NCBI GenBank assembly: GCA_016794125.1
Contig: JAEUKT010000002.1
Span: 335,240 to 399,239, forward strand
Reading direction: 5' to 3'
DNA from: Alphaproteobacteria bacterium
GTDB taxonomy: Bacteria; Pseudomonadota; Alphaproteobacteria; Micavibrionales; UBA2020
DNA: 64,000 nt
Shown: piece by piece, positions 5,048-63,819 of the stretch
Position numbering within the stretch: position 1 is the stretch's first letter
How the letters are laid out: each line of letters opens with the position of its first letter
Translations under genes and position numbers: made by a program
The notes under the pieces: generated by a model
Told to the model about the DNA's origin: nothing
Seen by the model: only the letters and a program-made list of their open reading frames with translations
The model's database searches: none

Positions 5048-5353
5048 TTACGGATTGCGCTTGCCGAATTTCGAGGTTTCGACATGGGTGGGGGTGATGT
5101 TTTTCACCGCGTATTCGTTCGACCCGACCGAAACGGTATTGAAATCGCGGGCGGTTGCGGGCAGCGTGCCGTCGGCGATGGCGCGGTTGAGTTCGGCATA
5201 GCCGCGGTCGATGACCTGTTCGGTCGCGTCGGGGCCGAAGCAGCCGCCGGAATGGACGCGGGCGCTGAACACTTCCGCGCCGTCTTTTTTGAAGGCGACG
5301 TTGGAGAAGCTGGCCATAATGCCCATCGGGCGTGTCTGGGGTTTTTTGCTCAT
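5048..5353 (-). CDS. Hypothetical small protein
   Basis: 101-aa ORF with an AAGGA SD 7 nt upstream of the ATG and a terminator downstream. Ends ...SKFGKRNP-stop. Confidence 0.55.
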   Translation of the reverse strand: MSKKPQTRPMGIMASFSNVAFKKDGAEVFSARVHSGGCFGPDATEQVIDRGYAELNRAIADGTLPATARDFNTVSVGSNEYAVKNITPTHVETSKFGKRNP

Positions 5354-5478
5354 GGCAAATCCTTTTCAAATGATAAAACGAATAGCCTTTTTTAGTAGAG
5401 AAAGGGCGATAATCTGTCAATCCCCCCTTGCGCCACGCCTTGAAAAAGCAGTATTTTTATCTGAACGAGGGTAAAAAA

Positions 5479-6273
5479 ATGGCTGAATTCGCGCTTCCGA
5501 AAAATTCCAAGATCAAAGAGGGCAAGAAATACGCCGCGCCTTCGGATGCGAAGAAAAAACGCACCTTTAACGTCTATCGCTGGAACCCCGACGACCGCGA
5601 AAATCCGCGCCTCGATTCATACGAAATCGACATCGCGAAATGCGGGCCGATGGTGTTGGACGCGCTGATCTATATCAAGAACGAGGTCGATGCGACGCTG
5701 ACCTTCCGCCGCTCCTGCCGCGAGGGGGTTTGCGGGTCCTGCGCGATGAATATCGACGGCACCAACACGCTGGCCTGCACCAAACATGTGGACGACGTGA
5801 AGGGCGACGTAAAAATCACCCCGCTGCCGCATATGCCGGTCATGAAAGACCTAGTGCCCGACCTGACGCATGTCTATGCGCAGTACAACACGATCGAGCC
5901 GTGGCTGAAAACCGAAAGCCAGCCGCCATCGCGCGAGCGCCTGCAAAGCGCGAAGGATGCGAACCACCTGAACGGCGAGGACGGCCACGGCCCTGCGGCC
6001 TGCATTTTGTGCTTCTGCTGCTCGACCTCCTGCCCCAGCTACTGGTGGAACGGCGACAGGTTCCTCGGCCCCGCCATTTTGCTGCAGGCCTATCGCTGGA
6101 TTTCGGATACGCGCGATGAAGCGACCGGCGAGCGTCTTGATAACCTCGAAGACCCGTTCCGTCTGTATCGCTGCCACACCATCATGAACTGCACCAACAC
6201 CTGCCCCAAGGGCCTGAACCCCGCGAAAGCGATTGCGGAGATCAAGAAATTGATGGTGGCAAGACGGGTTTAA
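5479..6273 (+). CDS. sdhB: Succinate dehydrogenase iron-sulfur subunit
   Basis: Three Cys clusters: [11 protein letters not shown] (2Fe-2S), [12 protein letters not shown] (4Fe-4S), [12 protein letters not shown] (3Fe-4S). Start taken at the ATG at 5479 ([10 protein letters not shown]...). Confidence 0.95.
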
Positions 6274-6283
6274 CCCGGGTTAT

Positions 6284-6997
6284 TTAACCCTTGGGCCCGG
6301 GCAGCGCTTTCGGCTTTTCCAGTTTTTTGGGAAGAATTTCACCCTCCAGCTGCGCGATGCGCGCGGCCATCTGTTCCATGCGCGCGGCGACTTCGTTGAA
6401 GCCGGCGATCATGGTGGCCTGTTCGGGCGACAGCGCGACCGGCACACCCACGCCAAGATCGGCGGCGGTGACGATGCGCGCGGCCTGAAGATCATCGCCT
6501 GCGGGCGCAAAGCCGATGCGCCCCTGCCGCACAAGCACGCCCTGATACACGGCGCGACCCGCCAGCCTGAACATGCCGTCTTCGCTGTCGATCGTCGCAC
6601 CCGCGTCTTTCAGCGCGGCCAGCAGCCCGCGCGCCTCGGCGGTGGAGCGCGGGAAAAAGGCGAAGATGCCCGCCTGCAGTTCCTGCGGCGTGATGCGCGC
6701 GGCTGCTGCGTCGAAGCCGGACAAATAAAAATTGTCGAAGCCGTCGGCGCTGGCGTTGATCCCTTCGGCCTTGCCGGTCGATACCATGATCGTCTTGTCG
6801 GCATCGAGATAGATGCTGCCCTTGATCGCGTTGTCCAGCTGCTGCGCGTATTCGGGTTTGTAATACCTGTAACCAAGGCGCTGCAGCTGCGTTGCGATGT
6901 ATTCGGCTTCCTCCATCGTGGCCGGCGTGAAGACGACCTTGCCGTCCGTGCCTTGCAGGAAGTCGCGCGTCAGCAATGGCGTCGTCCGCGCCGTCAT
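6284..6997 (-). CDS. Hypothetical protein, C-terminal coiled-coil plus Lys/Pro tail
   Basis: 237-aa ORF with no recognised motif. C-terminus ...MEQMAARIAQLEGEILPKKLEKPKALPGPKG. Confidence 0.55.
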   Translation of the reverse strand: MTARTTPLLTRDFLQGTDGKVVFTPATMEEAEYIATQLQRLGYRYYKPEYAQQLDNAIKGSIYLDADKTIMVSTGKAEGINASADGFDNFYLSGFDAAAARITPQELQAGIFAFFPRSTAEARGLLAALKDAGATIDSEDGMFRLAGRAVYQGVLVRQGRIGFAPAGDDLQAARIVTAADLGVGVPVALSPEQATMIAGFNEVAARMEQMAARIAQLEGEILPKKLEKPKALPGPKG

Positions 6998-7328
6998 GCT
7001 GTCACCGGAGATATGGAGGGAGTGGCTGCCATGATCCTGCCTGTTTTAAATACGGGGGCAGTAGAGCATGACCTAGATTATTATGTCAATACATTAATCT
7101 GGCGCCATTTTACAGATTGACATAGTCTACGAATCAGCTAGGGTATTACGTCCAAGCGGAGTGTCATAATACCAGACGGAGCGGTTTTCCTTGAGTGGAT
7201 CTGTTTCTCGCCCGTCACTTTCTTTTCACTCACGAAACAACCACGAATTTTTTCGGGTTGTTTTGGCTCATCGTGATCCGTTCACCTGAAAAAATCATGT
7301 GCAAAACAGGTTATCAAGGAGACGGACT

Positions 7329-7859
7329 ATGACTGACAACACACACGAACATTCGGCCGCCAGCTGGGTGAATGCCTTCTTTAACGAGATGGAAAACTGC
7401 ACCACCGCAGCGCAGGTCGCGCAGCTGTTCACCGACATGCGGCAGAACCTGAAAGACCCGCTCCATGACGAAGTCATGGCAGGGATCGAAGAAGGCCTGT
7501 CGAAGGACATCGCCACATTGCCGCCAGACGTGAAAAGCTACCTGAGAATGGCAATGGAGATTTTCGAGGAAGCGAAAAACGACAAATCAGGGCGCGGCGC
7601 GATTGCCGCCCAGCTGCTGGCCGCCAACAACGCGCTTTTGCCGATGAGCGAGGCCTTCAACCAGGTCGCGCAGGCGCGCGGCGACAAGCTGGGCAATACC
7701 GCAAAAATCTTCGTCGAAGAGGCCGCCAAGCTGACCGACGAACAGTATAACGACACGCTGGAGCAGGTGCGCCTGATGCTGCGTGTCAGCGACCGCGCTT
7801 CGGCGCCGCCCAAGCCGGCCAAGCCGGGGAACCCCTTCCGCAAGGGGCCGGCCGCCTGA
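7329..7859 (+). CDS. Hypothetical helical protein with Lys/Pro tail
   Basis: AAGGAGA SD 7 nt upstream of the ATG at 7329. 176 aa, ends ...SAPPKPAKPGNPFRKGPAA, with a terminator downstream. Confidence 0.6.
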   Translation: MTDNTHEHSAASWVNAFFNEMENCTTAAQVAQLFTDMRQNLKDPLHDEVMAGIEEGLSKDIATLPPDVKSYLRMAMEIFEEAKNDKSGRGAIAAQLLAANNALLPMSEAFNQVAQARGDKLGNTAKIFVEEAAKLTDEQYNDTLEQVRLMLRVSDRASAPPKPAKPGNPFRKGPAA

Positions 7860-7872
7860 TAAGGCATCGTTG

Positions 7873-7917
7873 AAAAACGCCGCCATTCCGCAAACAGCGG
7901 TATGGCGGCGTTTTTTT
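7873..7917 (+). terminator. Rho-independent terminator
   Basis: ACGCCGCCAT (7877-7886) pairs with ATGGCGGCGT (7902-7911), followed by a T7 run. Confidence 0.7.
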
Positions 7918-7982
7918 ACCCCCTGTCCAGCGCGCCGATTCTCCCCTATTATCGTCCGTACACCGCAACAGGAGATTCCGCC

Positions 7983-10347: not shown

Positions 10348-10399
10348 ATTATTCATAATAAGCTTGTCTTATCGGCGTTTTGCGCCTAGTCTCCCCTTT

Positions 10400-10770
10400 G
10401 CCAGAAGGCCGGATAACCGCGGGTATGCAAATATTCGAGGAAAGTCCGGGCTCCAGAAAAACACGGTGCCGGTTAACGGCCGGCGGGGGCGACCCCAGGG
10501 ATCAGTGCCACAGAAAATATACCGCCCAGCAATGGGTAAGGGTGAAAAGGTGCGGTAAGAGCGCACCGCGGAACTGGCAACAGTTTTGGCAGGGAAAACC
10601 CCACCGGGAGCAAGGCCAAATAGGGAAGGCATGATCATCTTCGGATGGTCGGGTTTGTTTTTTAACCTCGCCTTCCGGGTTGGCTGCCAGAGGTGACAAG
10701 AGATTGTCACCCCAGACGAATGGTTATCGCCGCGCAAGCGGTACAGAACCCGGCTTACAGGCCTTCTGGC
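10400..10770 (+). ncRNA. rnpB: RNase P RNA, bacterial type A
   Basis: Universal GAGGAAAGTCCGGGCTCC block near the 5' end and ACAGAACCCGGCTTA near the 3' end. P1 helix GCCAGAAGGCC (10400-10410) pairs with GGCCTTCTGGC (10760-10770). T-run follows. Ends approximate to +/-5 nt. Confidence 0.9.
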
Positions 10771-10795
10771 ATATTTTTTTGAGACCAAATGGAGT

Positions 10796-12088
10796 GTGCA
10801 TATCTTGAACTACGATCCCGTTGAAGGCGTGAATTACATTTTCGACCGCTATGCGTTCATGAACCAGATTTTGCAGGACGGCAAAAGCGAGCTGCGGATT
10901 TCGGAATCCTCGACCCGCGACGACATGAACAAGGCCTTCACGATTGCGCGCGGCATGTACCACCCCGACCGTCAGGCGCGCACGGGTGACGAGATGAAGC
11001 AAAAGGCGGAGCAGAAAACGAAGCTGATCGCCGATTGCGAACGCTTCCTGCTGAACCCCGAATTAAAATCATTCTATGACGATAAGCTGGCGCATTTCCG
11101 CGAGCATAAGCCGCATCTGGTATCTGATAGCGGCATCGCCATCATCAGCCTTGGCGAAACCGTGTTCGATATCGGCGCGCTTTTGTCGGACGATGTCGTC
11201 GATACGTCGGATTTCGAAGCCCGCGTGAAGGCATTGACGCAGTATGACGACAAGCGCGTGCCGCAGCTGAAATCGCTTTACGACATGATGCCCGACAACG
11301 CGCAGGTGAAATCGCTGTACCGTGACGCGGTCACATCGGAATATATTTACCTCGGTTTCCTTGAAGATTCCGCATGGGCAAAAGTCGGCTACATGAACCG
11401 CAAGGAAAAAGAAGAAGGTTTCATGATCCGCGCGTCCGATTATACCAAACGTGTGGATGCGGCGCTGGAAAAGGCAGCGGCGCGCGACATTGATTCCACC
11501 ATCGAAAGCCACGGCGCGGTCGCCCGCATCGGCATGGCGAAAACCCCGCTGCTGCTGGATGCCGCCGAAGGCACGGAAATGCCCGGCATGGAGCTGATGG
11601 CACCCGACCAGCACAAACGCCTGATGGAAAAATTCAAGGATGTCGCGCACAAGAATTTCGAAATCCGCGCCGAATATGTGCGCGAGGTGGCAAAACGCAA
11701 GGAAGCAGCGCTTGAAACGCTGCTGAACCTGTCGGAGATCGAGCCGATTGGCGTGGAGGCCGCAGGCCAGACGAAATTCGATTTCTACATGATCAACCCC
11801 GCGCATGACGACAACCCTGCGCGCGTCGTGTACCGCCTGGAACTTGATCTTGAAACCGGCAATGCCGGCATCGGCGAAATGTATCGGGAGCCCCTGACGC
11901 TCGATCAATTGAAGGCGCAGGAAGGCACCCGCGCCGGTTTCGCCGTGATCCGCAATATCGAGATTTCGGACATCATGCTGGAAACGGCGGCCGCATCGGA
12001 GCGGTTCCTGAACACCCGCGTGAAGGACGTGGAGCAAACACCCGCCCCCGCCGCGGCCAAACCGAAAAACAACGCGCCCCGTCCGTAA
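10796..12088 (+). CDS. J-domain (DnaJ-like, HPD motif) protein with uncharacterised C-terminal region
   Basis: N-terminal ~70 aa fits the J-domain pattern: ...DDMNKAFTIARGMYHPDRQ...KQKAEQKTKLIADCERFLLNPELKSFYDDKL, with HPD at codons 56-58 (nt 10961-10969). No zinc-finger or Gly/Phe region. The start may be the GTG at 10796 or the TTG at 10805, which has better spacing from the GGAG. Ends ...AAAKPKNNAPRP-stop. Confidence 0.75.
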   Translation: MHILNYDPVEGVNYIFDRYAFMNQILQDGKSELRISESSTRDDMNKAFTIARGMYHPDRQARTGDEMKQKAEQKTKLIADCERFLLNPELKSFYDDKLAHFREHKPHLVSDSGIAIISLGETVFDIGALLSDDVVDTSDFEARVKALTQYDDKRVPQLKSLYDMMPDNAQVKSLYRDAVTSEYIYLGFLEDSAWAKVGYMNRKEKEEGFMIRASDYTKRVDAALEKAAARDIDSTIESHGAVARIGMAKTPLLLDAAEGTEMPGMELMAPDQHKRLMEKFKDVAHKNFEIRAEYVREVAKRKEAALETLLNLSEIEPIGVEAAGQTKFDFYMINPAHDDNPARVVYRLELDLETGNAGIGEMYREPLTLDQLKAQEGTRAGFAVIRNIEISDIMLETAAASERFLNTRVKDVEQTPAPAAAKPKNNAPRP

Positions 12089-12099
12089 CGGAGTTTTGT

Positions 12100-12462
12100 A
12101 TGCCGACGTTCAAGCGACTGGACGAACACAGCCTTCTGGTACGTACCGACCTTGCCGAAGCCAAGGAATGGGGAGGCGCGCGACTGAGCCGCATTTTCAA
12201 TTTCAAGGCGCGGCAGCTGACCACCATTTACGAGCGCGGCGGCACGCAGGAGTTTTCGATCCCGAACGGCAACTATTCGTCAAAAACCGGATACACCGCC
12301 GCCGTCACCTCGTCGATGACCGTGCAGAATTTCCGCGACATCGAAGGCACGGAAGAAATCGCCGAAATGCACGCCAAGCTGGTCAGCCTGAACGGCCGGC
12401 CGCCGAAACTGGAGGATGTGCTGCCCGGGCAGATGAACAAAAAAGCGAAGCTCGGCGGCTGA
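12100..12462 (+). CDS. Small protein, unassigned family (copy A)
   Basis: 120 aa, GGAG SD, 11 nt after the J-domain gene. Shares RIFNFKARQ(L/I)T, F(R/S)D(I/L)(E/D)...E(I/V)A(E/D)MH and G.PP.L blocks with copies B-E. Confidence 0.65.
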   Translation: MPTFKRLDEHSLLVRTDLAEAKEWGGARLSRIFNFKARQLTTIYERGGTQEFSIPNGNYSSKTGYTAAVTSSMTVQNFRDIEGTEEIAEMHAKLVSLNGRPPKLEDVLPGQMNKKAKLGG

Positions 12463-12507
12463 ACGGCGTTAAGTCGGGCGTTAAGTTTATTTTCATAGGA
12501 GTGGAAA

Positions 12508-12828
12508 ATGGCAGATACTGAAGTTTATGAAAAAATGAACGACTATACGTTGTCGGCCATGACCGAATTCTCCGCCCAGTCGGGTTCCGACCCCATGCTG
12601 CGTCGGATTTTCAATTTCAAGGCGCGCCAGATTACCAACATCTATTCGCAATGGTACGGCGCCAGCGTTTCCAATTCGATGGTCATCCAGAAATTCAGCG
12701 ACCTCGACAGCCTTGACGAAGTCGCCGACATGCATAAACGCCTGCGGGACAAGGGCGGCAATCCGCCGCCGCTGGAGGTGGATGCGCTGGGCAAATCCAC
12801 CGCGCGTCCGGCGACGCTCCGCCCGTGA
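12508..12828 (+). CDS. Small protein, unassigned family (copy B)
   Basis: 106 aa, AGGAG SD. Contains RRIFNFKARQIT...FSDLDSLDEVADMHKRLRDKGGNPPPLEV...ATLRP-stop. Confidence 0.65.
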   Translation: MADTEVYEKMNDYTLSAMTEFSAQSGSDPMLRRIFNFKARQITNIYSQWYGASVSNSMVIQKFSDLDSLDEVADMHKRLRDKGGNPPPLEVDALGKSTARPATLRP

Positions 12829-12885
12829 GCAAATTGCTGCACCGAAATTCCGCCGATTTTGCACCGTAATTGCACAGCCCTTCCG

Positions 12886-14641: not shown

Positions 14642-14643
14642 CC

Positions 14644-38335: not shown

Positions 38336-39349
38336 TTACATGCCGGGGGGGCGCGGCGTGCTGGGCGGGTTAGGCTTTTTTGGCGCGGGCGGCGCAAGGC
38401 TGAGCGCCACGCGGTCGTTCAGGAAACCATCGACTTCCTTCAGCCACTGGTCGCGCAGCTCGTCGCGCTCCATCCAAATTTCGTGCTTTGCGTCGGCAAT
38501 TTCAACCTTTTTCGCATGCGGCAGCAGCGTTAATGCGCGGTCCTGCGCGGCGCGGTCGACAATTTTTTCCTGGCCTGCGATCTCCATCAGGATCGGCGTT
38601 TTGATGGCTTTCAGGTAATCTTCGTCGTTCAGAACGTCGATAGATGAAAAGGTGTGATAGACCCAGCCATAGGTCGCATCGCCGATTTTCAGCGCGTCGT
38701 TGTTCTTGACGATTTCCTGATCGGCGGCGAAGCGCATGGGGTCGCTGGTTTTATTATTGCCCTTAAACGGTTCTTCCGACCAGTCGGCACCGCCGGGGAT
38801 GTATTTTTCAAGGTAGTTGCCGGCCTTGGCGAATTTCGCCATCTGGCGCGCCAGTTTTTTCGGCATCCCGTTCGTGACGATATCGATCATGGGCGAGGTG
38901 AGGATGGCGGAATCAAATACGCCGTCATGTTCGTTCAGGTAACGCAGGCCGATATGCGCGCCCATCGAATGGCCCATATAGATCAGCGGTTTTTTCGCGG
39001 CGGGTTCGACGACGGTGGTCACGAACTGGTGCAGCGTTGCGATCTGTTCGTCGTAGCCTTCCTGATGCGCCTTCTGGCTGCCCTTGATGAATTTTTCCGA
39101 CCCGCCCTGCCCGCGCCAGTCCAGCATATAAACGTCAAAGCCGCGCGCATTCAGATCGTGCATGACTTCGTAATATTTCTCGATATTCTCGCGGAAGCCG
39201 CTGCCGATGACGATGCTGCCTTTCGACACGCCGTCGGCCTTCGACACGCCATAGCGGATATCCGCACCCTTGGCATTCTTGAAATGCCCTTCGGTGAAAT
39301 TCGGCGGCTGGTTGAATTTTGCTGGCAACATACCCTTAAGGTCCCCCAT
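38336..39349 (-). CDS. Alpha/beta hydrolase, lysophospholipase (PldB/monoacylglycerol lipase)-like
   Basis: DWRGQGGSEK oxyanion region and nucleophile elbow GHSMGA. C-terminal acid/His region (IADAKHEIWMERD). Pro/Lys tail ...LAPPAPKKPNPPSTPRPPGM. Confidence 0.8.
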   Translation of the reverse strand: MGDLKGMLPAKFNQPPNFTEGHFKNAKGADIRYGVSKADGVSKGSIVIGSGFRENIEKYYEVMHDLNARGFDVYMLDWRGQGGSEKFIKGSQKAHQEGYDEQIATLHQFVTTVVEPAAKKPLIYMGHSMGAHIGLRYLNEHDGVFDSAILTSPMIDIVTNGMPKKLARQMAKFAKAGNYLEKYIPGGADWSEEPFKGNNKTSDPMRFAADQEIVKNNDALKIGDATYGWVYHTFSSIDVLNDEDYLKAIKTPILMEIAGQEKIVDRAAQDRALTLLPHAKKVEIADAKHEIWMERDELRDQWLKEVDGFLNDRVALSLAPPAPKKPNPPSTPRPPGM

Positions 39350-40319
39350 GTTGCGGCGGCGCTGCTTTGGGCGGCACCGGTTTCAGTTTTATCTGGTCTG
39401 CGATAAATCCGTCGATTTCTTTCCACCATGCGCGGCGCTGCGTGTCGCGGTCGATCCACAGCGCGTGCAGGCCGCCGTCGATTTCTACCGTTTTCGCGTT
39501 CGGCACCAAACGTCCGGCGCGGCGCACGGATTCGTTGTCGATCACGTCATCCGCCCCGCCGATGCCGAACAGCACGGGCGTTTTGATGGAGCGCAGGAAA
39601 TTTTCGCCCGATGTTTTCTCGGTCGATTTGAACAGGCTGTCCACGTAGCCGATTGTCGGGTCTTCGGCCTTTAATTTGTCGTTCAGCAGCATGAAGGATT
39701 TGTGCAGGCCCATGCGCACGGGGTTTTTTTCGCGCATATCCTTGCGCTCTGCCGTCAACTGGCGGGTCATCGCGCGGCGGCCGTCCTTGATGCGCTGGTT
39801 GGCAAGGCCGCCTTCGACCGCAGCCGCGAAGGCCTGCTTCATCAGGTCTTTCGCCGTGCCCATCGGGCGCATTTCAACGAGCGGCGTTGCGAGGACCGCA
39901 AAATTGAAATCGGATTGATGCTGTTCAAGATATCGCAACGCCACCTGCCCGCCCATGCTATGTGTGCTGAGGAACAGCGGCTGCGATTTGTCGAACTGCA
40001 CGATTTCCTGCCGGAATTTGCGCAGGTCTTCGATATGGTCTTCGACCGTCTGGCCTTTTTTCGACGGCGGCGAATTTTTTTCGGAGCCGCCATGCCCCGC
40101 CCAGTCCATCATCCAGACGGCGTAACCGCGATCGAGATATTCGTGGATGGTTTCGTGATAGGCTTCGCGGAAATCGGCATAACCGGTCGTGATGACGACG
40201 GTGCCTTTTTTCTCCCCCGCCGGTTCGGCATGGCCATAGCGGATCTTTTTACCAGTAGTGCTGGTAAACGTATCCTCCTGCCATCCATCCGGTTCGAAAA
40301 ACCGGTTTAAATTCGCCAT
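39336..40319 (-). CDS. Alpha/beta hydrolase, lysophospholipase-like (tandem paralog)
   Basis: DWAGHGGSEK, THSMGG, DGGLHALWIDRD; tail ...KLKPVPPKAAPPQHGGP-stop. ATG at 40319 preferred over the TTG at 40334. The 3' end overlaps the start of the downstream paralog by 14 nt. Confidence 0.8.
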   Translation of the reverse strand: MANLNRFFEPDGWQEDTFTSTTGKKIRYGHAEPAGEKKGTVVITTGYADFREAYHETIHEYLDRGYAVWMMDWAGHGGSEKNSPPSKKGQTVEDHIEDLRKFRQEIVQFDKSQPLFLSTHSMGGQVALRYLEQHQSDFNFAVLATPLVEMRPMGTAKDLMKQAFAAAVEGGLANQRIKDGRRAMTRQLTAERKDMREKNPVRMGLHKSFMLLNDKLKAEDPTIGYVDSLFKSTEKTSGENFLRSIKTPVLFGIGGADDVIDNESVRRAGRLVPNAKTVEIDGGLHALWIDRDTQRRAWWKEIDGFIADQIKLKPVPPKAAPPQHGGP

Positions 40320-44953: not shown

Positions 44954-46891
44954 TTATGGAGAAGCGGGTTTCGCGCCCTTGGAAGGTTTCGCCTGCGGCG
45001 CATCGTCGAGTTTTTCCAGCTCGTTCAGGTATTTGTCGATCAGCGACAGCCCCTTCTGCCAGAATTCCGGCGACTCGGGGTCGAGATCGAAGGGCTGCGT
45101 CATCTCGTACAGGTTGCGCGTGATGCCCGTTTCCAAAAGCTCGATATAGTTATCGACGAATTCCTGTTTCGCTTCGGGCCCTTCCTTCTCTGCCGCCTTG
45201 TAGGCCTGATACAGTCCGCTCACCATGTTCTGCGCGAAGGAATAGGAATAGACGTAGAAGGGCGTGTCGTAGAAATGCGGGATGACCATCCAGTAATAAC
45301 GGTCGTATTTATCGGTTTCGACGGCGGGGCCGAAATATTCCTTTTGCGTCTGGATCCAGATATCGGAAATATCCTCGACCGACAGCTCGCCTTTTTTACG
45401 CGCCTCATGCGCCTTGCGTTCGAAATCGTAATACGACAGCTGCTGCATAGAATTGAGGATCATGCCCTCGACCTTGTCCTTCAGCAGGTCTTTTTTGCGC
45501 GCGGGGTCTTTTTCCTTGGCCAGCATTTCCTCGAATACCAGCATTTCGGCGAAGATGCTGGCGGTTTCCGATACCGCCGTGGACATTTCGGACAGGAACA
45601 AGCCGCGCGCCTGTTCCGCCAAAACCTGATGCACGCCATGACCCAGTTCGTGGCCGAGCGTGACCAGTGAATCGCGGTCGCCCGTATAGCTCATGAACAC
45701 GAAGGGCGAATTTTCCGGCCCGGTCGGCATGGCGAAGGCACCGGTTTCTTTGTCGGGGCGCGGCTGCGCGTCGATGCGGTTCTGGTCGAAAAATTTCTGC
45801 GCGATGCGCGCGAATTTGGGCGAAAATTTCTTGAAGGCGCGCAGGATGGTGCGGCGCGCGTCATCGAAACTGTATTCCGCTTCATCCTTCGGTGCGTTCG
45901 GCAGCGGGCGGCCCAGTTGCGCGCGCGGCATCACCTCCACGCCGTGCTGTTCGGCCTTCCAGCTGTAAAAACGGTGCGACAATTTGGAATAATTCGCCTT
46001 CACCGTCGCCGCCATCGTATCGACGATTTCGGGCGACAGCAGGTTGCCGCGGTTTTCTTCCTCGTCAGGGCGAGAATATTTGTTCAATTCGGTATAGGTC
46101 AGCGTGTCGCGCATCAGGGTGTTATAAATCAGCGCCATGCGCTTCGACCCCGCCTCCAGCACGTCGCCGAGTTTTGCGCGCAGGGCTTCGCGCTCCTCGA
46201 TCGTCTCGAAACCCTTGGTGCCGAACAGTTCATGCGCTTCGTCGAGGGAGATTTTCTTGCCGCCGACTTCGACGCGCATGCCGTTTAGCGTTTCGTGGTA
46301 CAGCCTGCGCCATGCGTCGCTATTGCTGGCGGCATATTCCGCGCTTAAAGACGCCACATCGCCATCAATCTGTTCCGACCGGCCGCCGCGCACGCGCGCG
46401 ATCCAGGGCGCATAAGGCGCAAGATCGGGCGCGGCGAGTTTGGTCATCAGGTCGCGTTCTTTCATCGCCAGCAATTCTTCTTCGAAAAAGCCGGTATGTT
46501 CGCCGACCTCGCCCATCCATTTCTTGATGGATTCTGTTTTGGAGAAGTTGTTGAGGTTATCGGCCTCCAACAGCCCGACATAGCAGGAAATTTTCGTGCG
46601 CATGTTTTCGATCGCCTCGTATTCGGCGACCGCTTCGCCCAGCTGCGGGCCGGTGAGGTAGGCGATGGTGGTATTGTATTCGTCGTAGAATTTTTTTGCG
46701 CGGGTTTCCAGCGCATCCTTGTCCGCCTCCAGCTCGGGCGAATTAAGCGCGGGATAAAGCTGCGTCAAATCCCAGCGCGGCAGGTTGTCGTTGCCGGCGG
46801 GCACGGGATCGGCGGCGGCGTTGAAGCTGCGCGCCGGTTGCGGGCTGGGCTTGCGCGCGCGGGAAAAATCTTCGCGCAGGTGCTTTTTCAT
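44954..46891 (-). CDS. M3 family oligoendopeptidase (PepF-like)
   Basis: HELGHGVH zinc site with downstream ETASIFAE and an N-terminal LPRWDLTQLYP motif. Lys/Pro tail ...DDAPQAKPSKGAKPASP-stop. Confidence 0.9.
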   Translation of the reverse strand: MKKHLREDFSRARKPSPQPARSFNAAADPVPAGNDNLPRWDLTQLYPALNSPELEADKDALETRAKKFYDEYNTTIAYLTGPQLGEAVAEYEAIENMRTKISCYVGLLEADNLNNFSKTESIKKWMGEVGEHTGFFEEELLAMKERDLMTKLAAPDLAPYAPWIARVRGGRSEQIDGDVASLSAEYAASNSDAWRRLYHETLNGMRVEVGGKKISLDEAHELFGTKGFETIEEREALRAKLGDVLEAGSKRMALIYNTLMRDTLTYTELNKYSRPDEEENRGNLLSPEIVDTMAATVKANYSKLSHRFYSWKAEQHGVEVMPRAQLGRPLPNAPKDEAEYSFDDARRTILRAFKKFSPKFARIAQKFFDQNRIDAQPRPDKETGAFAMPTGPENSPFVFMSYTGDRDSLVTLGHELGHGVHQVLAEQARGLFLSEMSTAVSETASIFAEMLVFEEMLAKEKDPARKKDLLKDKVEGMILNSMQQLSYYDFERKAHEARKKGELSVEDISDIWIQTQKEYFGPAVETDKYDRYYWMVIPHFYDTPFYVYSYSFAQNMVSGLYQAYKAAEKEGPEAKQEFVDNYIELLETGITRNLYEMTQPFDLDPESPEFWQKGLSLIDKYLNELEKLDDAPQAKPSKGAKPASP

Positions 46892-48834
46892 CCGCCCCCC
46901 ATTTTCGGCCCCTTGCGGGCATGCCGGTTCGAGGGCGGATCGACGGCATGGGGCTTGTCGTCGTTCACGGCGCGTTTCAGGTCGGAAACCTCGCCCGCCG
47001 CGTTTTTAAAATCCTGATGCGTTTTGTGGATCGCGTCGATGCGGCGGTCCAGTTGTTCGACCTCGTCGATATAACGCTCGATAACCGCCAATCCCTTCTT
47101 CCAGAATTGCGGATCGGTGGTATCAAACCCGAATTCGGCCAACGCGACTTCGTGCCGCCTTGTGCCGCCCGCCTTCAGCATATCTTCGTATTTCTCGATA
47201 AAGACCTGTTTGTCGGGCGCTTTGGTGTATTCGTCATACAGTGCGTTCACCATGCAGTCGCCGAAGGAATAGGCGTAGACATAGAACGGCGTATGGATGA
47301 AATGCGGCACATACATCCAGAAATTTTCCGCGCCCGGCACATCGAGGTTGACGGCGGGGCCCAGACTATCCTTCTGCGTCTGCTGCCAGATGTCGGAAAT
47401 ACGCTCCGGCGACAGCTCGCCTTTTTCGCGACGTTCTTCGTGAAGTTTTTGTTCAAAGGTAAAAAACGCCGCCTGCCGGTTAACGGTGTTCAGCATGCCT
47501 TCGACCTTTTCGGCCAGCATGTTGCGGCGCGCGACCAAGTCGTCTTCGCGCCCCAGCAGTTCGCGGAACACGATCATTTCGCCGAATACGCTGGCGGTTT
47601 CGGCGAGCGTCAGCGGCGTGTCGGATTTCAAGAACCCCTGCTTCGATGCCATCACCTGATGGATGCCATGCCCCAGTTCATGCGCCAGCGTCATCACATC
47701 GGCGGCCGAGCCGAAGAAATTGAGCAGGATATAGGGATGCGCCGACGGCACAGCGGGATGGGCGAAACCGCCACTGTCTTTCCCTGCGCGGGGTTCAGCA
47801 TCGATCCAGCCCTTGTCGAAAAATTCGCGGCCGATCTTTTCCATTTCCGGTGAAATCTTGCCAAATCCTGCCAGCACGATTTCTTTTGCTTCGTCCCATG
47901 TATAGCGCGTATTCGCTTCGCCCGGCAGCGGCGCATTCCGGTCGGCGGGGTGCAGGCGCGCGACGCCCGCTTTTTTCGCTTTCCATGCGTAATAGCGGTG
48001 CGACGTTTTGGCGTAGTTATCGCGCACGGCCTTCAGCAGCGCATCGACCGTTTCCTGATCGATCTGGTTTTCAAGATGCTGGCGCGATTCAGGTTTTTCG
48101 AAATTGCGCCAGCGGTCATCGACCGATTTCAGGTCGGCAAGCGTGTTGGTGATGAGCGCGAAGGCCTTTTTATTCTCGCCCAACTCGCGGCCGAAGGCGT
48201 TATAGGCTTCGCGGCGCAGTTTCGCGTCGGTCGAGGTGTCGATGATGTTGACGGCTTCGGCCTCGGTCATCTCCTTGCCGCGCACAGTCACGCGCAGGTC
48301 GATCATCATCTGGTTGTAAAGCCGGCGCCAGGCTTCTTCGGCGACGGGTTCCATCTGGTGCTGGAATTTTTCGGCCGCGTCCGACAGCTGGTGTTCGCGC
48401 ATGGAGCGCACGCGGCCGATCCACGGCGCATACTGCGCAAGCTTGGGCGCGGCAATTTTCTGCAGCAGGTCGGCTTCCTTGATCTTGTTGATTTCAAGGG
48501 TAAAAAACAAAAGAGATTCCGACGATTTGCGCAGCCGGTCGGATGCATCCTGCGCCCATGCGCTTTGTTCGTTGTCAATCGAACGCGTGAGTTCGATATA
48601 CGTCGCAACGCGCGCGATGGATTCGGAAATTTTTTCGAACTGCTCGATGGCGTCGCCCAGATTCTGGCCGGACAGTTTGGCGACCTTGCCGGAAAAAGTT
48701 GCGGCGAATTTGGCGGTCGCTGTTTCGATATCGGCGAAGGCGGCGGTGAATTCTTTTGAATCCTGCGACGGGAACAGGTCGCGCAAATCCCAGCGCGGGA
48801 GTTTTTCCTGTCTTGGCCTTGTCGTATCCGTCAT
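46888..48834 (-). CDS. M3 family oligoendopeptidase (PepF-like), tandem paralog
   Basis: HELGHGIH, ETASVFGE and LPRWDLRDLFP motifs. 4-nt overlap with the downstream paralog. Tail ...DDKPHAVDPPSNRHARKGPKMGGG. Confidence 0.9.
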   Translation of the reverse strand: MTDTTRPRQEKLPRWDLRDLFPSQDSKEFTAAFADIETATAKFAATFSGKVAKLSGQNLGDAIEQFEKISESIARVATYIELTRSIDNEQSAWAQDASDRLRKSSESLLFFTLEINKIKEADLLQKIAAPKLAQYAPWIGRVRSMREHQLSDAAEKFQHQMEPVAEEAWRRLYNQMMIDLRVTVRGKEMTEAEAVNIIDTSTDAKLRREAYNAFGRELGENKKAFALITNTLADLKSVDDRWRNFEKPESRQHLENQIDQETVDALLKAVRDNYAKTSHRYYAWKAKKAGVARLHPADRNAPLPGEANTRYTWDEAKEIVLAGFGKISPEMEKIGREFFDKGWIDAEPRAGKDSGGFAHPAVPSAHPYILLNFFGSAADVMTLAHELGHGIHQVMASKQGFLKSDTPLTLAETASVFGEMIVFRELLGREDDLVARRNMLAEKVEGMLNTVNRQAAFFTFEQKLHEERREKGELSPERISDIWQQTQKDSLGPAVNLDVPGAENFWMYVPHFIHTPFYVYAYSFGDCMVNALYDEYTKAPDKQVFIEKYEDMLKAGGTRRHEVALAEFGFDTTDPQFWKKGLAVIERYIDEVEQLDRRIDAIHKTHQDFKNAAGEVSDLKRAVNDDKPHAVDPPSNRHARKGPKMGGG

Positions 48835-51434: not shown

Positions 51435-51437
51435 GCG

Positions 51438-58357: not shown

Positions 58358-58402
58358 GTTCAAGACAAACGTAACTGACTGAAAAAAATAGGGAGTTCCG
58401 CC

Positions 58403-61099
58403 GTGACGGTAACTGGACACGATACGCTGAAAACAAGAAAAACACTCACCGTGGACGGCAAGAATTACGATTATTTCAGCCTCAGCGATGCCGCGAAAAC
58501 AATCGGCGATATTTCGCGCCTGCCCTATTCCATGAAAGTGCTGCTGGAAAACCTGCTGCGTTTCGAAGACGGCCAGAGCGTGACCGTCGATGATGTGAAG
58601 GCAATGGGCGAATGGCTGAAAGATAAAAAGAGCAACCGCGAGATCGCCTATCGCCCCGCGCGCGTTCTGATGCAGGACTTCACCGGCGTTCCCGCCGTGG
58701 TCGATCTGGCCGCGATGCGCGACGCGATGGTGGCGCTGGGCGGTAACCCGCAGAAAATCAATCCGCTCGCCAACGTCGATCTGGTGATCGACCACTCGGT
58801 GATGGTCGATAATTTCGGCACGAAAGACGCCTTTGGCGAAAACGTGAAGGTGGAGTTCGAGCGCAACCTGGAGCGTTATGTGTTCCTGCGCTGGGGTTCC
58901 AAGGCATTCAACCGTTTCCGCGTCGTGCCGCCCGGCACCGGCATCTGCCATCAGGTGAATTTGGAATACCTGTCACAGACCATCTGGGTCGAAGACGACG
59001 AAAATATCAAAGGCACAACGGTCGCCTATCCCGACACGCTGGTCGGCACCGACAGCCATACGACCATGGTCAACGGCCTTGCAGTTCTGGGCTGGGGCGT
59101 GGGCGGCATCGAGGCCGAAGCCGCGATGCTGGGCCAGCCCGTGTCCATGCTGATCCCCGAAGTGATCGGCATGAAGCTGACCGGCCAGATGAAGGAAGGC
59201 ACGACCGCAACCGACCTCGTCCTGACCGTCACGCAGATGCTGCGCAAAAAAGGTGTGGTCAACAAATTCGTCGAATTCTACGGCTCCGGCCTTGATCACC
59301 TGTCGCTGGCCGACCGCGCGACGATCGCCAACATGGCGCCCGAATACGGCGCGACCTGCGGTTTCTTCCCGATCGACGGCGAAACCATCAATTACCTGCG
59401 CTTCACTGGCCGCGATGAACACCGCGTGCAACTGGTCGAAGCATACGCAAAAGCACAAGGCATGTGGCGCGAAGCGAATGCCCCCGACCCCGTCTTCACC
59501 GATACGCTGGAACTGGATCTTGCCACCATCGAACCGTCGATGGCCGGCCCGAAACGCCCGCAGGACCGCGTGCCGCTGGTGAATGTCGCCAACGGCTTCA
59601 AGGAAACGCTGGCGAAGGATATCGGCGAAGCAAAAGCCGCCGTCACCGCGCCCGTGAAAGGCCATGATTACAGCCTGAACCACGGCGATGTCGTGATTGC
59701 CGCGATCACCAGCTGCACCAACACCTCCAACCCCTCCGTCATGCTGGCGGCGGGACTGGTGGCGAAAAAGGCGCTGGAAAAAGGCCTGACCGTGAAGCCC
59801 TGGGTGAAAACATCCCTCGCCCCCGGATCACAGGTCGTGACCGATTACCTTGAAAACGCAGGGCTGCAATCGAGCCTTGATTCACTCGGCTTCAATTTGG
59901 TCGGCTATGGCTGCACGACTTGCATCGGTAACTCCGGCCCGCTGCCCGAACATATCGAGGAAGCGATCAAGGCAGGCGACCTGACCGTTGCGGGCGTGCT
60001 TTCGGGTAACCGCAACTTCGAAGGCCGCATCCATGCGTTCGTGAAGGCGAACTATCTTGCCTCCCCGCCCCTCGTCGTCGCTTATGCGCTGGCGGGTTCG
60101 GTCAAGATCGATATCACCAAGGACGCGATTGGCACCGGCAAGGACGGCAAGCCTGTCTATCTGAAGGATATCTGGCCGTCGCAGAAAGAAGTCGCCGATA
60201 CGCTGAAATCCGCGCTGACGCAGGAAATGTTCAAGAAGCGCTACGGCAACGTGTTCCACGGCCCCGCCGAATGGCAGGCCGTGCAGACGGAGGGCGGCGA
60301 GACGTATAAATGGAATTCGTCATCGACCTATGTGCAGAACCCGCCCTATTTCGCAGGCATGACGATGAAACCGGAAGAAGTGAAGGACATCAAAGGCGCG
60401 CGCGCATTGGCCGTGTTCGGCGATTCCATCACGACCGACCATATTTCCCCCGCCGGATCGATCAAGAAAGACAGCCCCGCCGGATCGTACCTGATGAGCT
60501 ATCAGGTGCGCCCGATCGACTTCAACTCCTACGGCGCGCGCCGCGGGAACCACGAAGTCATGATGCGCGGCACTTTCGCGAATATCCGCATCAAAAACGA
60601 GATGCTCGGCGGCAAGGAAGGCGGCCTGACCCGCCATATCCCGTCCAACACCGAAATGCCGATCTATGACGCGGCGATGAAATACATCGCCGAAGGCACG
60701 CCGCTGATCGTGTTCGCCGGTAAGGAATACGGCACAGGATCGTCGCGCGACTGGGCGGCCAAGGGCACGAAACTGCTGGGCATCCGCGCGGTCGTGGCCG
60801 AAAGCTTCGAGCGCATTCACAGATCCAACCTTGTCGGCATGGGCGTGCTGCCCCTGCAGTTCAAGGACGGCATGACGCGCGCGGCGCTGAACCTGACCGG
60901 CGAAGAAACCTTCGACATCGCCGGCATCGCAACCGGCCTGCAGCCGCGCATGGATTTGAAAATCGTCATCCACCGCGCGGGCGGCGCAACCGACGAAATC
61001 ACCGTCTGGTGCCGCATCGACACGCTGGATGAAATCGAATACTTCGCGAATGGCGGCATCCTGCACTACGTGCTGCGTTCGATAGCGAAGGCGGCGTAA
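58403..61099 (+). CDS. acnA: Aconitate hydratase A
   Basis: 898 aa. Fe-S ligand motifs [10 protein letters not shown] and [10 protein letters not shown], plus a swivel domain. GTG start with a GGGAG SD. Confidence 0.97.
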
Positions 61100-61127
61100 C
61101 GGGTTATTTTAAAAGAAAGGGATTCTG

Positions 61128-61814
61128 ATGAAGTTTTCATGGCTTTGCCTGCTGGCGGCGATTGCAATTGCGGCACCGGCAACAACCGTCATGGCGCAGA
61201 ATCCCGGCACGGGGCAGCAGCCGCTGCCCAACCCGCTCGACCCGCCCGCGCCGCCGCCATCGACCGAGGCCAAGCCCGACTGGATGGGTTACCCCAAGGA
61301 AGAAACCGGGGAACAGGGCGACCTGTCGAACCCGCACCGCACGCCCGAAGAAATCGTGGCATGGGTGCAGTCGCTGTCGACCGATATGCTGACATTCACA
61401 TCCAAAGCCGCCTATGACCGCCTGACCGAAGCGGGCGCATCGATCGCGTTCGAGGAAGTGAATACGAAACTGTTCCGCCTGAAGCCCAAATTCACGGCCA
61501 AGGGCTGGGCCGAATACGCCGCCTATGCGCAGCAGTCGCAAATCATCGACAAGGTGCGCAACCACGAATATTCGGTCACCACCATCATGAACGGCAACGC
61601 CGCCATTCTGGACAAGGGCCCTGTCGAGGGCGTTTACCGCTGGCTGGTGCGCGCGCCCCTGATGATCACCTATCTGCTGGTCAACGAAAAGGGCGAGCAG
61701 CAGGCTGTGGAAGACGGCCAGTTTGAAGTGACGATGCAGCTGGCACGCGGCCCCCAGACCGGCCCCGAAGATCCCGGCCTGCTGGTCGAGGGCTGGAACG
61801 TCGTTGCGAAATAA
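61128..61814 (+). CDS. Secreted protein, possibly DotI/IcmL-like domain
   Basis: Signal peptide (AIAIAAPATTVMAQ), a Pro-rich linker, then W...LTF...FTAKGW.EY....S.IIDKV....SVT......IL.KGPVEGVYRWLVRAPLMITY. From memory this resembles the DotI/IcmL (T4BSS) domain pattern. The CDS call is solid; the family call is tentative. Confidence 0.5.
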   Translation: MKFSWLCLLAAIAIAAPATTVMAQNPGTGQQPLPNPLDPPAPPPSTEAKPDWMGYPKEETGEQGDLSNPHRTPEEIVAWVQSLSTDMLTFTSKAAYDRLTEAGASIAFEEVNTKLFRLKPKFTAKGWAEYAAYAQQSQIIDKVRNHEYSVTTIMNGNAAILDKGPVEGVYRWLVRAPLMITYLLVNEKGEQQAVEDGQFEVTMQLARGPQTGPEDPGLLVEGWNVVAK

Positions 61815-61820
61815 ATCCGC

Positions 61821-62009
61821 TTAAGGCTTCTTGAACAGCGCATCGACCGCGCTGCGGTGGGTGTCTTTCTTCGCGATATCCGCCTCGACGCGGGCGATTT
61901 CTTCCTTTAGCTGCGCCACATAATCGCGGAGTTCCGGCACCGACATTTTATCGAGCGCGCGGGGTTTCGCGCGTTTGGTTTTGGGGTCGTTTTCGTCGTC
62001 GAAAATCAT
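61821..62009 (-). CDS. DUF1192 family small protein
   Basis: 62 aa. The LDKMSVPELRDYVAQLKEEIARVEADIAKK...A.ALF pattern is typical of alphaproteobacterial DUF1192. Confidence 0.75.
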   Translation of the reverse strand: MIFDDENDPKTKRAKPRALDKMSVPELRDYVAQLKEEIARVEADIAKKDTHRSAVDALFKKP

Positions 62010-62061
62010 CTATAATGCTCCCGTCACTGCAACGCGCCCATCATAGCGGAAAACAAACCAG

Positions 62062-63078
62062 ATGCCAAAAAAACCGACACCCCGGAAAAACGCCGTCCCG
62101 ACCGAGATGAAAGCCGCCGCCGTGCATGACCATGCGCTGGTGACGGAAACCCGCCCTGTGCCGAAACCGGCGGCGGGCGAAGTATTGGTGCGCGTGGCCG
62201 CCGCCGGCGTGAACCGCCCCGATATTTTGCAGCGCAAGGGTCTGTACCCGCCCCCCGCCGGAATCTCCGATATTCCCGGCCTTGAAATCGCGGGCGAAGT
62301 CGCCGCGCTGGGCAAGGGCGTGACGGGGCTGAAGAAGGGCGCGAAGGTTTGCGCGCTTGTGGCAGGCGGCGGCTATGCCGAATATTGCGTCGTGCCGGCC
62401 GTGCAATGCCTGCCCGTGCCCAAAGGCATGGATATGGTGACGGCGGCGGGATTGTGCGAAACGCATTTCACCGTCTGGACAAATTTGTTCGACCGCGGCC
62501 AGTTGAAAAAAGGCGAAAGCGTTTTAGTCCATGGCGGCGCATCCGGCATCGGCACGACCGCAATACAGGTCGCAAAATCATTCGGCGCGAAAGTCTATGT
62601 AACAGCCAGCACCGATGACAAGGGCAAGGCCTGCGTGAAGCTGGGCGCGACAGCCGCGATCAATTACCGCCAGAAAGATTTCGTGGCGGAGGTCATGACG
62701 CTGACCGACAACCGCGGCGTCGATGTGGTGCTGGATATGGTCGGCGGCGATTATGTGGCGCGCAACCTGAAAACGCTGGCCCCCTACGGCCGTCATGTCA
62801 GCATCGCGATGCAAAAGGGCCGCACGGTCGAGGTCGACCTGTTCCAGATCATGTCGAAGCGGCTGGTCATGACCGGATCGACGCTGCGCCCGCAGCCGGT
62901 ATCGGTGAAGGGCGAGATTGCGAAAGCGCTGAAGAAAAACATCTGGCCGCTGGTGGCGCGCAAAAAAATCCGCTGCGTGATCGACAGCGTCTATACCCTC
63001 GACGAAGCGCAAAAAGCCCATGAGCATCTGGAGGTGGGGAATCATGTCGGCAAGGTGATTCTCAAGGTCGGCGTCTAA
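62062..63078 (+). CDS. NAD(P)H:quinone oxidoreductase (MDR superfamily, PIG3/Qor-like)
   Basis: GVNRPD, PGLE(I)AG, the VHGGASGIGTTAIQ nucleotide-binding motif, and C-terminal GKVILKV. Confidence 0.9.
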   Translation: MPKKPTPRKNAVPTEMKAAAVHDHALVTETRPVPKPAAGEVLVRVAAAGVNRPDILQRKGLYPPPAGISDIPGLEIAGEVAALGKGVTGLKKGAKVCALVAGGGYAEYCVVPAVQCLPVPKGMDMVTAAGLCETHFTVWTNLFDRGQLKKGESVLVHGGASGIGTTAIQVAKSFGAKVYVTASTDDKGKACVKLGATAAINYRQKDFVAEVMTLTDNRGVDVVLDMVGGDYVARNLKTLAPYGRHVSIAMQKGRTVEVDLFQIMSKRLVMTGSTLRPQPVSVKGEIAKALKKNIWPLVARKKIRCVIDSVYTLDEAQKAHEHLEVGNHVGKVILKVGV

Positions 63079-63143
63079 TATTTACATAATAATTAGATAT
63101 TGCGTATATTTTTAAGCCGGATATGCCGCCCCGACGGTTATCT

Positions 63144-63200
63144 TTGACATATTAAATACGGTTTGCTATTCCTTTTGCATAACAAATACAGAAGGAATAG
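63144..63200 (+). promoter_or_regulatory. Candidate promoter plus 9-bp inverted repeat covering the Shine-Dalgarno of the small-gene array
   Basis: TTGACA (63144-63149), 17 nt, TATTCC (63167-63172). CTATTCCTT (63166-63174) is the exact reverse complement of AAGGAATAG (63192-63200), which contains the AAGGA SD 8 nt upstream of the ATG at 63208. Confidence 0.35.
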
Positions 63201-63207
63201 CCCGCCC

Positions 63208-63513
63208 ATGTCCCTCACCGCCGCCTTCAACGACGATTATCCGACTGAAATGGTGAACAGTTACGTGCTGACCGTCCAATATGATGTGGCGGGTTACAGC
63301 CAGGTGATGGCCTATGATTTCAAGGCGCGGCTGATGACGCTGCGCACCGATGGTTATGCGGATGCGGGCGTGCGCATGATCCCGTTTTCACAGCTGGACC
63401 GCGACAGCCTTGTGGAATTGCGCGACCAGCTGATCGAGCTGGGCGGCAATCCGCCGCCGCTCGCCCCCGAACCCAATACGCTGAACAAGCCCGCACGCGG
63501 CCTGAACCCGTAA
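63208..63513 (+). CDS. Small protein, unassigned family (copy C)
   Basis: 101 aa. Contains MSLTAAFNDDY...YDFKARLMT...PFSQLDRDSLVELRDQLIELGGNPPPL...LNKPARGLNP-stop, with an AAGGAAT SD. Confidence 0.65.
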   Translation: MSLTAAFNDDYPTEMVNSYVLTVQYDVAGYSQVMAYDFKARLMTLRTDGYADAGVRMIPFSQLDRDSLVELRDQLIELGGNPPPLAPEPNTLNKPARGLNP

Positions 63514-63525
63514 AGGAATTCCCAC

Positions 63526-63819
63526 ATGTCGCTCAGCGCAGATTTCAACAACACCCACAACCCGCAAAGAATGGGCGATAACGTGCTGCGCATGGGGTAC
63601 GACTCTGTCAGCTTCTTCTATGACTTCGCGCAACGGCTGCTGGTGACCTCCTACCGCTATAGCGATGCGGGCGGCACGACCGTTACGCCGTTTTCGCAGC
63701 TGGACCGCGAAACGCTGATTGACATGCGCGACAAGCTGGTGGAGCTGGGCGGCAAGCCGAAGGAACTGCCGCCGGAAGGCCCGACGCTCAACAAGCCCAC
63801 GCGCGGCCTGAACCCGTAA
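63526..63819 (+). CDS. Small protein, unassigned family (copy D)
   Basis: 97 aa. Contains MSLSADFNNTH...YDFAQRLLVT...PFSQLDRETLIDMRDKLVELGGKPKEL...LNKPTRGLNP-stop. AAGGAAT SD, 12 nt after copy C. Confidence 0.65.
   Translation: MSLSADFNNTHNPQRMGDNVLRMGYDSVSFFYDFAQRLLVTSYRYSDAGGTTVTPFSQLDRETLIDMRDKLVELGGKPKELPPEGPTLNKPTRGLNP

Follow-up and report, generated by a model that had tools for sequence, protein, structure and literature searches.

A near-invariant C-terminal tail on a tandemly arrayed protein family of Micavibrio-like predatory Alphaproteobacteria

A 64,000-nucleotide stretch of an alphaproteobacterial genome assembly (Micavibrionales, UBA2020; contig JAEUKT010000002.1, positions 335,240–399,239; the whole stretch is hereafter the window) encodes several proteins with proline directly before the stop codon, raising the question of whether such endings reflect a common function of the C-terminus, an effect on translation termination, or coincidence. 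A first-pass annotation had listed seven such proteins, namely three small paralogs (copies B, C and D), a J-domain protein, a clade-specific open reading frame (ORF 5048), an M3 oligoendopeptidase F (PepF) and an S33 hydrolase, five of which share an (N/R)-P ending, and had proposed that they reflect either a C-terminal determinant recognized in common or regulation coupled to termination. The positions and stop codons of all seven were confirmed, and an eighth Pro terminus, missing from that annotation, was found in a DUF1192 protein (Table 1). Overall, the Pro termini across the window have different causes. The near-invariant C-terminal tag carried by the family of ~100-residue proteins encoded in tandem at the end of the window (copies C to E) is a real and undescribed feature of a predatory lineage, and it is best explained, with a probability of roughly 0.55, as a docking or targeting tag that acts at the peptide level.

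Within single genomes of the window lineage, paralogs are 39–42% identical over their bodies and 78–88% identical over their last 8 residues. The ending [R/K]GLNP is kept in 35 of 35 copies from six genomes, and the homologues of copy C (P0001–P0013) retain ...TLNKPARGLNP at overall identities of 47–96%. The bodies diverge rapidly, with 66–72% identity for copy C and 65–76% for copy D when compared to the related loci L004 and L006, against 96% for the aconitase and 89–90% for the oxidoreductase encoded upstream. At the level of codons, [R/K]GLNP is encoded in the 35 copies by six Arg/Lys codons (Arg as CGC, AGA, CGG or CGA), four Gly, six Leu and four Pro codons, followed by TAA (n = 22) or TGA (n = 13), with TAG occurring at locus L010. 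The Shine-Dalgarno sequence of the next copy sits past the stop (TAA-GGA), or else the genes overlap at ATGA or GTGA. Given this synonymous codon variation and the placement of the Shine-Dalgarno beyond the stop, the tail is not conserved for nucleotide reasons, and a repeat element, a ribosome-binding site and a terminator were all rejected as causes. As judged from the alignments, peptide-level selection keeps the last 11 residues (TLNKPxRGLNP-COOH) nearly unchanged in the window lineage. The only free position, x in KPxRGLNP, is specific to the genome over its paralogs (LLALLLLL in L006, AVPVVVV in L002 and AAAVQQQ in L001), the dominant residue being Leu (L006), Val (L002, L004) or Ala/Gln (L001, L003); synonymous differences beside this position persist among paralogs. 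Such a genome-specific residue suggests co-evolution with one partner or, alternatively, old gene conversion.

Copies A–E, of which A and B lie in a second array, form one unannotated family restricted to Micavibrio-like predatory alphaproteobacteria. No match above threshold was found for copies A, B, C or D among the curated families of Pfam, NCBIfam and PADLOC, and a profile search against 1.84 billion cluster representatives returned 327 clusters (50% identity) at E ≤ 1e-3, a number that falls to 85 when the threshold is tightened to E ≤ 1e-10. Family members consist of an acidic alpha/beta body of ~77 residues that evolves fast, joined through an invariant GGxPPxL hinge and a Pro-rich linker to a disordered basic tail, with a median net charge of +2 over the last 12 residues. 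For copy C, AlphaFold2 predicted a body (residues 1–77) in which a five-stranded meander is preceded by a short helix and followed by another helix (predicted local distance difference test [pLDDT], 83–91), and a disordered stretch of 24 residues (78–101; pLDDT ~50). Neither a hydrophobic N-terminal segment nor a signal peptide was found in the family proteins. Several candidate identities were set aside: similarities of the body to a p32/gC1qR or frataxin-like fold were weak and not significant in Foldseek; homology to the C-terminal beta/alpha domain of the J-domain protein received an hhalign probability of 0.2%; a ubiquitin/Pup-like modifier, brought to mind by the LGG ending of copy A, disagrees with a GG that is not kept in copy A orthologues and a fold that is not a beta-grasp; and a ribosomally synthesized and post-translationally modified peptide precursor with a conserved core disagrees with the absence of modifying enzymes nearby and a body that is confidently predicted to be folded. 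The domain also occurs as two tandem domains in one polypeptide (172–211 residues) or at the C-terminus of proteins of 400–500 residues (among P0133, P0143, P0145, P0224, P0264 and P0274), while a protein of 2166 residues (P0255) has only weak repeated family matches.

A scan of GTDB representative genomes yielded 20 related loci. Loci L001–L006 and L011 have the same gene order as the window, with the ccm cluster, aconitase, a gene with a DotI/IcmL-like domain, DUF1192, a Zn-dependent oxidoreductase and then the array of ~100-residue genes, which numbers 4 copies in L011 and 6–9 in L001–L006. Two loci with an identical copy C, L031 and L032, differ in the number of array copies (7 and 6, respectively), with the equivalent of copy D missing in L032, a near-identical strain. 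The housekeeping genes of L001 are 97% identical to those of the window, yet its copies D and E are only 72–75% identical. From these differences in copy number and the divergence of L001, it follows that, as far as sequence comparison can tell, array copies are gained, lost or replaced. The related loci all come from metagenome-assembled genomes (MAGs), labelled Alphaproteobacteria, Micavibrio or otherwise; the contigs of L005, L017, L004 and L020 are labelled as Patescibacteria group, Arsenicibacter sp. or Bdellovibrionales and are probably mis-binned or mis-classified MAGs of Micavibrio-like organisms.

Outside the closest relatives the tail varies. At the orthologous locus, the array proteins of L007, L009, L010 and L013 end in ...GNGLNL, ...KKFNL or ...GGMNL, those of L011, L008, L012 and L014 in ...RKLNP, ...RPLRP or ...RGLNP, and those of the Micavibrio sp. 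loci in ...KPRAA(A). A family-wide tally covered 149 of the 150 listed representatives (P0133–P0281), with the top match (P0007), which also ends in Pro, left out. Among the 149 representatives listed, the last residue is Pro in 49 (33%) and Leu in 36 (24%), position -3 is L or F, position -2 carries N, K, R or Q, and positions -4 and -5 are basic or Gly, with LNP, LNL, LKL, FNP, FNL and LRP as typical endings. Because Leu replaces Pro in sister lineages in which the remaining motif is kept, Pro itself is not the determinant; for the wider family, these endings point to [K/R]-x-[L/F]-x-[P/L]-COOH, borne by a flexible linker that follows the GGxPPxL hinge, as the determinant, and not to the Pro-stop. 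In its loose form (basic-x-[L/F]-x-[P/L]-COOH) the motif was present in 29 of 85 family representatives, 15 of 42 homologues of ORF 5048, and 6 of 280 background genes (2%), and three of these six background matches lie in or beside family arrays.

The number of Pro termini in the window was compared to the background of the clade. Gene calling with a self-trained codon model produced 63 complete genes, of which 8 end in Pro (12.7%), with p = 0.018 when set against the overall Pro content (5.3%) and p = 0.10 when set against the terminal-Pro rate of non-family genes in the 20 related loci (7.6%); taken together, the termini hardly exceed chance. Copies B, C and D are paralogs of one family, so three of the eight termini are not independent. 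Once paralogs are removed, 5 of 57 genes in the window (8.8%) and 17 of 223 in the related loci (7.6%) end in Pro (Fisher p = 0.78), and the excess is therefore due to one paralog family and not a property of the window; a window-wide enrichment, as the repeated Pro endings had suggested, is gone once the paralogs are collapsed, and the remainder equals the clade background. In the pooled set of 280 non-family genes (window and 20 related loci) the last residue is Pro in 7.9%, no richer than positions -2 to -15 (2–14%). The first-pass annotation took terminal Pro to be generally disfavoured, a premise that does not hold for all bacteria, as the bias differs by clade (PMC7246954). The Micavibrio-like clade does not avoid terminal Pro, and for this reason Pro-stop counts by themselves are no evidence of regulation. 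In the non-family genes of the window and L001–L020, C-terminal Ala is strongly enriched, making up 23% of last residues and 19% of those at position -2, compared to an overall Ala content of 11.7%. An ...AA ending is shared by many housekeeping proteins, including aconitase (...AKAA), CcmC (...RGAA) and CcmA (...GAA); these endings recall ssrA-like AA-COOH degrons and may be a property of the clade.

ORF 5048 is 100% identical to JNM12_03820 and has 44 homologues, all from the Micavibrio clade, with no family match in Pfam, NCBIfam or PADLOC. Terminal Pro occurs in 33 of 42 homologues (79%), compared to 0–19% Pro at positions -2 to -10, with tails of the form ...K[FI]GK[RLM][NK]P or ...LKR[VL]xP. 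At L007 and L009, where the array tails are of the NL type, the ORF 5048 orthologues P0088 and P0087 end in ...NLNPAPKAKR and ...DLNPRPPKR, respectively, the last residue being neither P nor L. A determinant common to the ORF 5048 family and the array family is plausible from the resemblance of their tails. The ORF 5048 family also possesses an extended block of invariant residues (GIMASFSxVxFKKDGxEVFSAxVxSGGCFGPD).

The second array, consisting of A/B-type genes (2–5 copies), lies between the J-domain gene and the rsmH/dcw cluster in the window and in relatives whose J-domain proteins are 48–72% identical, and orthologous arrays are present in L023, L024 and L030. The terminal Pro of copy B is not fixed, as its orthologue in L023 ends in ...SPALRA. 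The J-domain protein has 45 clade-restricted homologues and is a divergent member of its class: the Pfam DnaJ score (23.8 bits) is under the 27.8-bit gathering score, while the HPD motif (...MYHPDRQ..., with H56, P57 and D58) is invariant in the homologue alignment and Foldseek matched J domains with probability 1.0. Foldseek made no assignment for the fold outside of the J domain. Terminal Pro occurs in 31 of these homologues, in a tail whose Pro content is 30–60% throughout its positions. A resemblance to copy B is confined to close orthologues (...KGPALRP). In M. aeruginosavorus (L021, CP066681.1) the A/B array is absent behind the J-domain gene, which instead adjoins prfA (RF1) and prmC, the gene for the release-factor methyltransferase (4796–7257); this proximity to termination factors is probably a coincidence. 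Upstream of the J-domain gene in the window, a gap of ~450 nucleotides without a called gene (10348–10795) corresponds to the position of a metallo-beta-lactamase-fold gene in L023.

The remaining Pro termini are less constrained. PepF keeps ...AKPASP within its 90% cluster, and its 80% orthologue in L028 ends in ...GPKAA, while the orthologues of the DUF1192 protein end in KKP, KKN, KKT or KKS; on this comparison of orthologues, both Pro termini are incidental. The hydrolase keeps ...PPQHGGP among sequences of at least 90% identity, a comparison that spans that cluster only, and its Pro terminus, within a Pro-rich tail, is probably incidental too. The Pro termini of PepF and DUF1192, probably that of the hydrolase, and largely that of the J-domain protein are thus established or likely by-products of disordered tails rich in Pro, Lys and Ala. 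PepF and the hydrolase are each encoded in a tandem pair of paralogs on the reverse strand, the stop codon of one gene overlapping the start codon of the other; these pairs consist of S33 alpha/beta hydrolases (38336–39349 and 39336–40319; one source annotates lysophospholipase) and M3 oligoendopeptidases F (44954–46891 and 46888–48786), and Pro-rich C-terminal tails occur in three of these four genes.

Set against these cases, the shared C-terminal determinant proposed in the first-pass annotation is borne out for copies C and D and their array, with a nearly invariant tail on bodies of ~40% identity and synonymous codons. It is plausibly extended to ORF 5048, on the strength of its terminal Pro and of the motif, is weak for copy B and for the J-domain protein, and is not supported for PepF and DUF1192.

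Table 1. Features of the window relevant to the C-terminal tails (positions are those of the 64,000-nucleotide window).
Feature	Position	Strand	Description
ORF 5048	5048–5353	-	Clade-specific, 101 residues; invariant SGGCFGPD core; basic tail, ends KRNP-TAA
J-domain protein	10796–12088	+	Clade-specific; HPD motif; disordered Pro/Ala/Lys-rich tail, ends APRP-TAA
Copy A	12100–12462	+	Divergent family member after the J-domain gene; family hidden Markov model match 3.8e-5; ends ...KAKLGG
Copy B	12508–12828	+	Divergent family member; ends ...RPATLRP-TGA
S33 alpha/beta hydrolase	39336–40319	-	Pfam Hydrolase_4; Pro-rich tail, ends PPQHGGP-TAA
M3 oligoendopeptidase F (PepF)	44954–46891	-	Pfam Peptidase_M3; ends AKPASP-TAA
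Aconitase	58403–61099		Context gene 5' of the array
DotI/IcmL-like domain gene	61191–61814	+	207 residues; PF11393 3e-15; two genes upstream of the array
DUF1192 protein	61821–62009	-	Pfam DUF1192; ends FKKP-TAA
Copy C	63208–63513	+	Array gene 1; acidic alpha/beta body, GGNPPPL linker, disordered tail; ends RGLNP-TAA
Copy C tail	63478–63513	+	TLNKPARGLNP and TAA, from translation; invariant in the copy C homologue alignment at 48–96% overall identity
Copy D	63526–63819	+	Array gene 2; 97 residues, start MSLSADFN...; ends RGLNP-TAA
Copy D tail	63784–63819	+	TLNKPTRGLNP and TAA, from translation
Copy E	63830–64000	+	Array gene 3, cut by the window end; family hidden Markov model match 1.6e-10

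If the tail is a docking or targeting tag, it would act as a short linear motif that links many different bodies to one shared partner, following the logic of the adaptor SspB, in which a variable cargo domain and a flexible linker precede a C-terminal docking peptide. Its partner could be an export machine, or else a cytosolic chaperone or AAA+ (ATPases associated with diverse cellular activities) hub, including the co-encoded J-domain protein and its DnaK system; the presence of a dedicated J-domain protein in the operon suggests the cytosolic hub. ORF 5048, which belongs to an unrelated family, may rely on this determinant too. A broader proposal, and a tentative one that is considerably less probable than the docking tag itself, is that basic-x-[L/F]-x-[P/L]-COOH constitutes an undescribed, clade-specific C-terminal address code in at least two unrelated families (array and ORF 5048), perhaps linked to the dedicated J-domain co-chaperone, that would route variable small acidic proteins to a single machine, either a new export route for prey-directed effectors or a hub distributing adaptors to one chaperone or protease. 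Several observations weigh against a docking tag, or against its reach. Gene conversion among the tandem copies could add to the uniformity of the tail, though the synonymous differences argue against recent conversion. The 280 background genes hold orthologues of the same syntenic genes and are not fully independent. In the A/B sub-family and among more distant members the tail varies, such that the tag is strict in only part of the family, and no significant Foldseek neighbour of the body was found (best E = 0.09 in PDB and 0.05 in BFVD). Further, none of 44 J-domain protein tails matched the motif, which weakens the case for one determinant in all five (N/R)-P proteins.

The main rival, though rather unlikely, is that the tail is an uncleaved C-terminal export signal, of type I or type IV-like character, for diversifying effectors directed at prey, perhaps including ORF 5048 and the J-domain protein, which could hijack the DnaK of the prey. 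The restriction of the family to Micavibrio-like predator MAGs, fast bodies and variable copy number alongside an invariant tail, and the absence of a Sec-type N-terminal signal are all in keeping with export, as is the resemblance of basic unstructured C-termini with a near-terminal hydrophobic residue to two classes of type IV secretion system (T4SS) signals (PMC10025392). The DotI/IcmL-like gene is syntenic with the array, holding its position nearby in all relatives, but its product scores far under the cutoff of the NCBIfam model IcmL_DotI_only (65.6 bits compared to 175) and is the only candidate T4SS component, a weak match, found in the available sequence. This protein evolves fast as well (72% identity to L006, with aconitase at 96%). 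Micavibrio possesses type I secretion that is up-regulated on prey, but type III and type IV systems are reportedly absent from M. aeruginosavorus (PMC3189940). The type I secretion system (T1SS) genes for the ATP-binding cassette (ABC) transporter, membrane fusion protein (MFP) and TolC were absent around either array (window, L001–L012 and L021–L032), VirD4/DotL genes were likewise absent beside either array, and no Gly-rich repeats of the RTX type were present in the family sequences. Known T1SS and T4SS signals are degenerate, not invariant peptides of 8–11 residues, and a role in the cytosol is indicated by the conserved operon that joins the family to a J-domain co-chaperone and the dcw cluster.

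Pure coincidence, in which all of the Pro termini arise from Pro/Lys/Ala-rich disordered tails in a GC-rich clade and from paralog descent, and the tail has no function, is improbable as a general explanation. The terminal Pro of non-family genes resembles that at neighbouring positions, the window is no different from the related loci, the endings of the PepF and DUF1192 orthologues vary freely, and the tail of the J-domain protein is Pro-rich throughout. It leaves unexplained, however, the identity of the last 8 residues against bodies of ~40% with synonymous codon turnover, the excess of terminal over adjacent Pro in the ORF 5048 family, and the motif frequencies of 34–36% compared to the background. 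This reading is contradicted for the array family and stands for PepF, DUF1192 and probably the hydrolase. Termination-coupled regulation, the second proposal of the first-pass annotation, in which the Pro-stop would slow release and thereby tune expression, translational coupling in the array or transfer-messenger RNA tagging, is the least supported and very improbable. In its favour, a terminal Pro delays peptide release in E. coli and leads to SsrA tagging (Hayes et al. 2002, as cited in PMC7246954), the immediate or overlapping junctions described above couple the array genes tightly, and ~25 tail residues would occupy the exit tunnel at termination. Against it, Pro gives way to Leu or to ...KPRAA at otherwise conserved loci and is the last residue in a third of the representatives listed, all three stop codons are in use, the products are folded proteins of ~100 residues rather than short leader peptides and have no evident regulated gene downstream, and expression was not measurably altered by a terminal Pro in the sole species assayed, alongside its clade-variable bias (PMC7246954).

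The tail could be used as bait for its receptor and as a search pattern for other proteins on the same route. To our knowledge, molecular knowledge of the epibiotic predation of Micavibrio is sparse, and we know of no effector-delivery signal that has been described. If the receptor proves to be an export machine, the finding would identify both a secretion signal of the predator and the substrates that carry it; with a chaperone or protease hub as the receptor, the family would be an unusual example of adaptor multiplication.

Among known systems, Pro-stop stalling (YbeL-type) and the TnaC/SecM arrest peptides share with the window Pro directly before the stop (in eight genes) and a conserved peptide that would occupy the exit tunnel at termination, but in the family Leu can stand in for Pro, different stop codons are used, and the proteins are folded and not regulatory leaders. 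The sister endings LNL, FNL and LKL follow the hydrophobic-x-hydrophobic-COOH pattern of class II PDZ ligands of HtrA/Prc-type proteases, and the free carboxylate appears to matter, whereas the family lacks signal peptides, bacterial PDZ proteases are periplasmic, and the variant ending in Pro is not a classical ligand. In the HscB-IscU-HscA system, IscU presents LPPVK to Hsp70. A dedicated J-domain protein encoded beside small alpha/beta proteins with a Pro-containing linear motif (GGxPPxL and the tail) is reminiscent of this system, but the Foldseek matches of the J-domain protein to HscB were not significant (E = 0.6–3.6), an Fe-S context is absent, and the association is absent in M. aeruginosavorus.

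In published descriptions, T4SS signals consist of clustered positive charges or hydrophobic residues (PMC10025392). As in the Arg-rich VirB/D4 and the Dot/Icm signals, and in those of the T1SS, the family tail is a predicted unstructured, uncleaved extreme C-terminus with a net positive charge and a hydrophobic residue at position -3, and the array family resembles effector families in being lineage-specific and diversifying; it differs in a far stricter motif and in having no cognate secretion genes nearby.

The E. coli SspB tail, ...GGRPALRVVK, is similar in composition to the tails ...KGPALRP and ...KPARGLNP from the family regions. Membership in the SspB family is excluded by sequence and fold, with no relation in Pfam or NCBIfam and a best Foldseek E value of 0.09, and, unlike SspB, the family gene has multiplied into diversifying tandem arrays. 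In predicted architecture, the family would nevertheless be most like the SspB-type AAA+ adaptors, in that a Pro-rich disordered linker connects a small folded domain to a short, conserved C-terminal peptide of basic and hydrophobic character. In SspB, the N-terminal domain binds cargo and the flexible C-terminal tail docks onto ClpX (PMC13251409).

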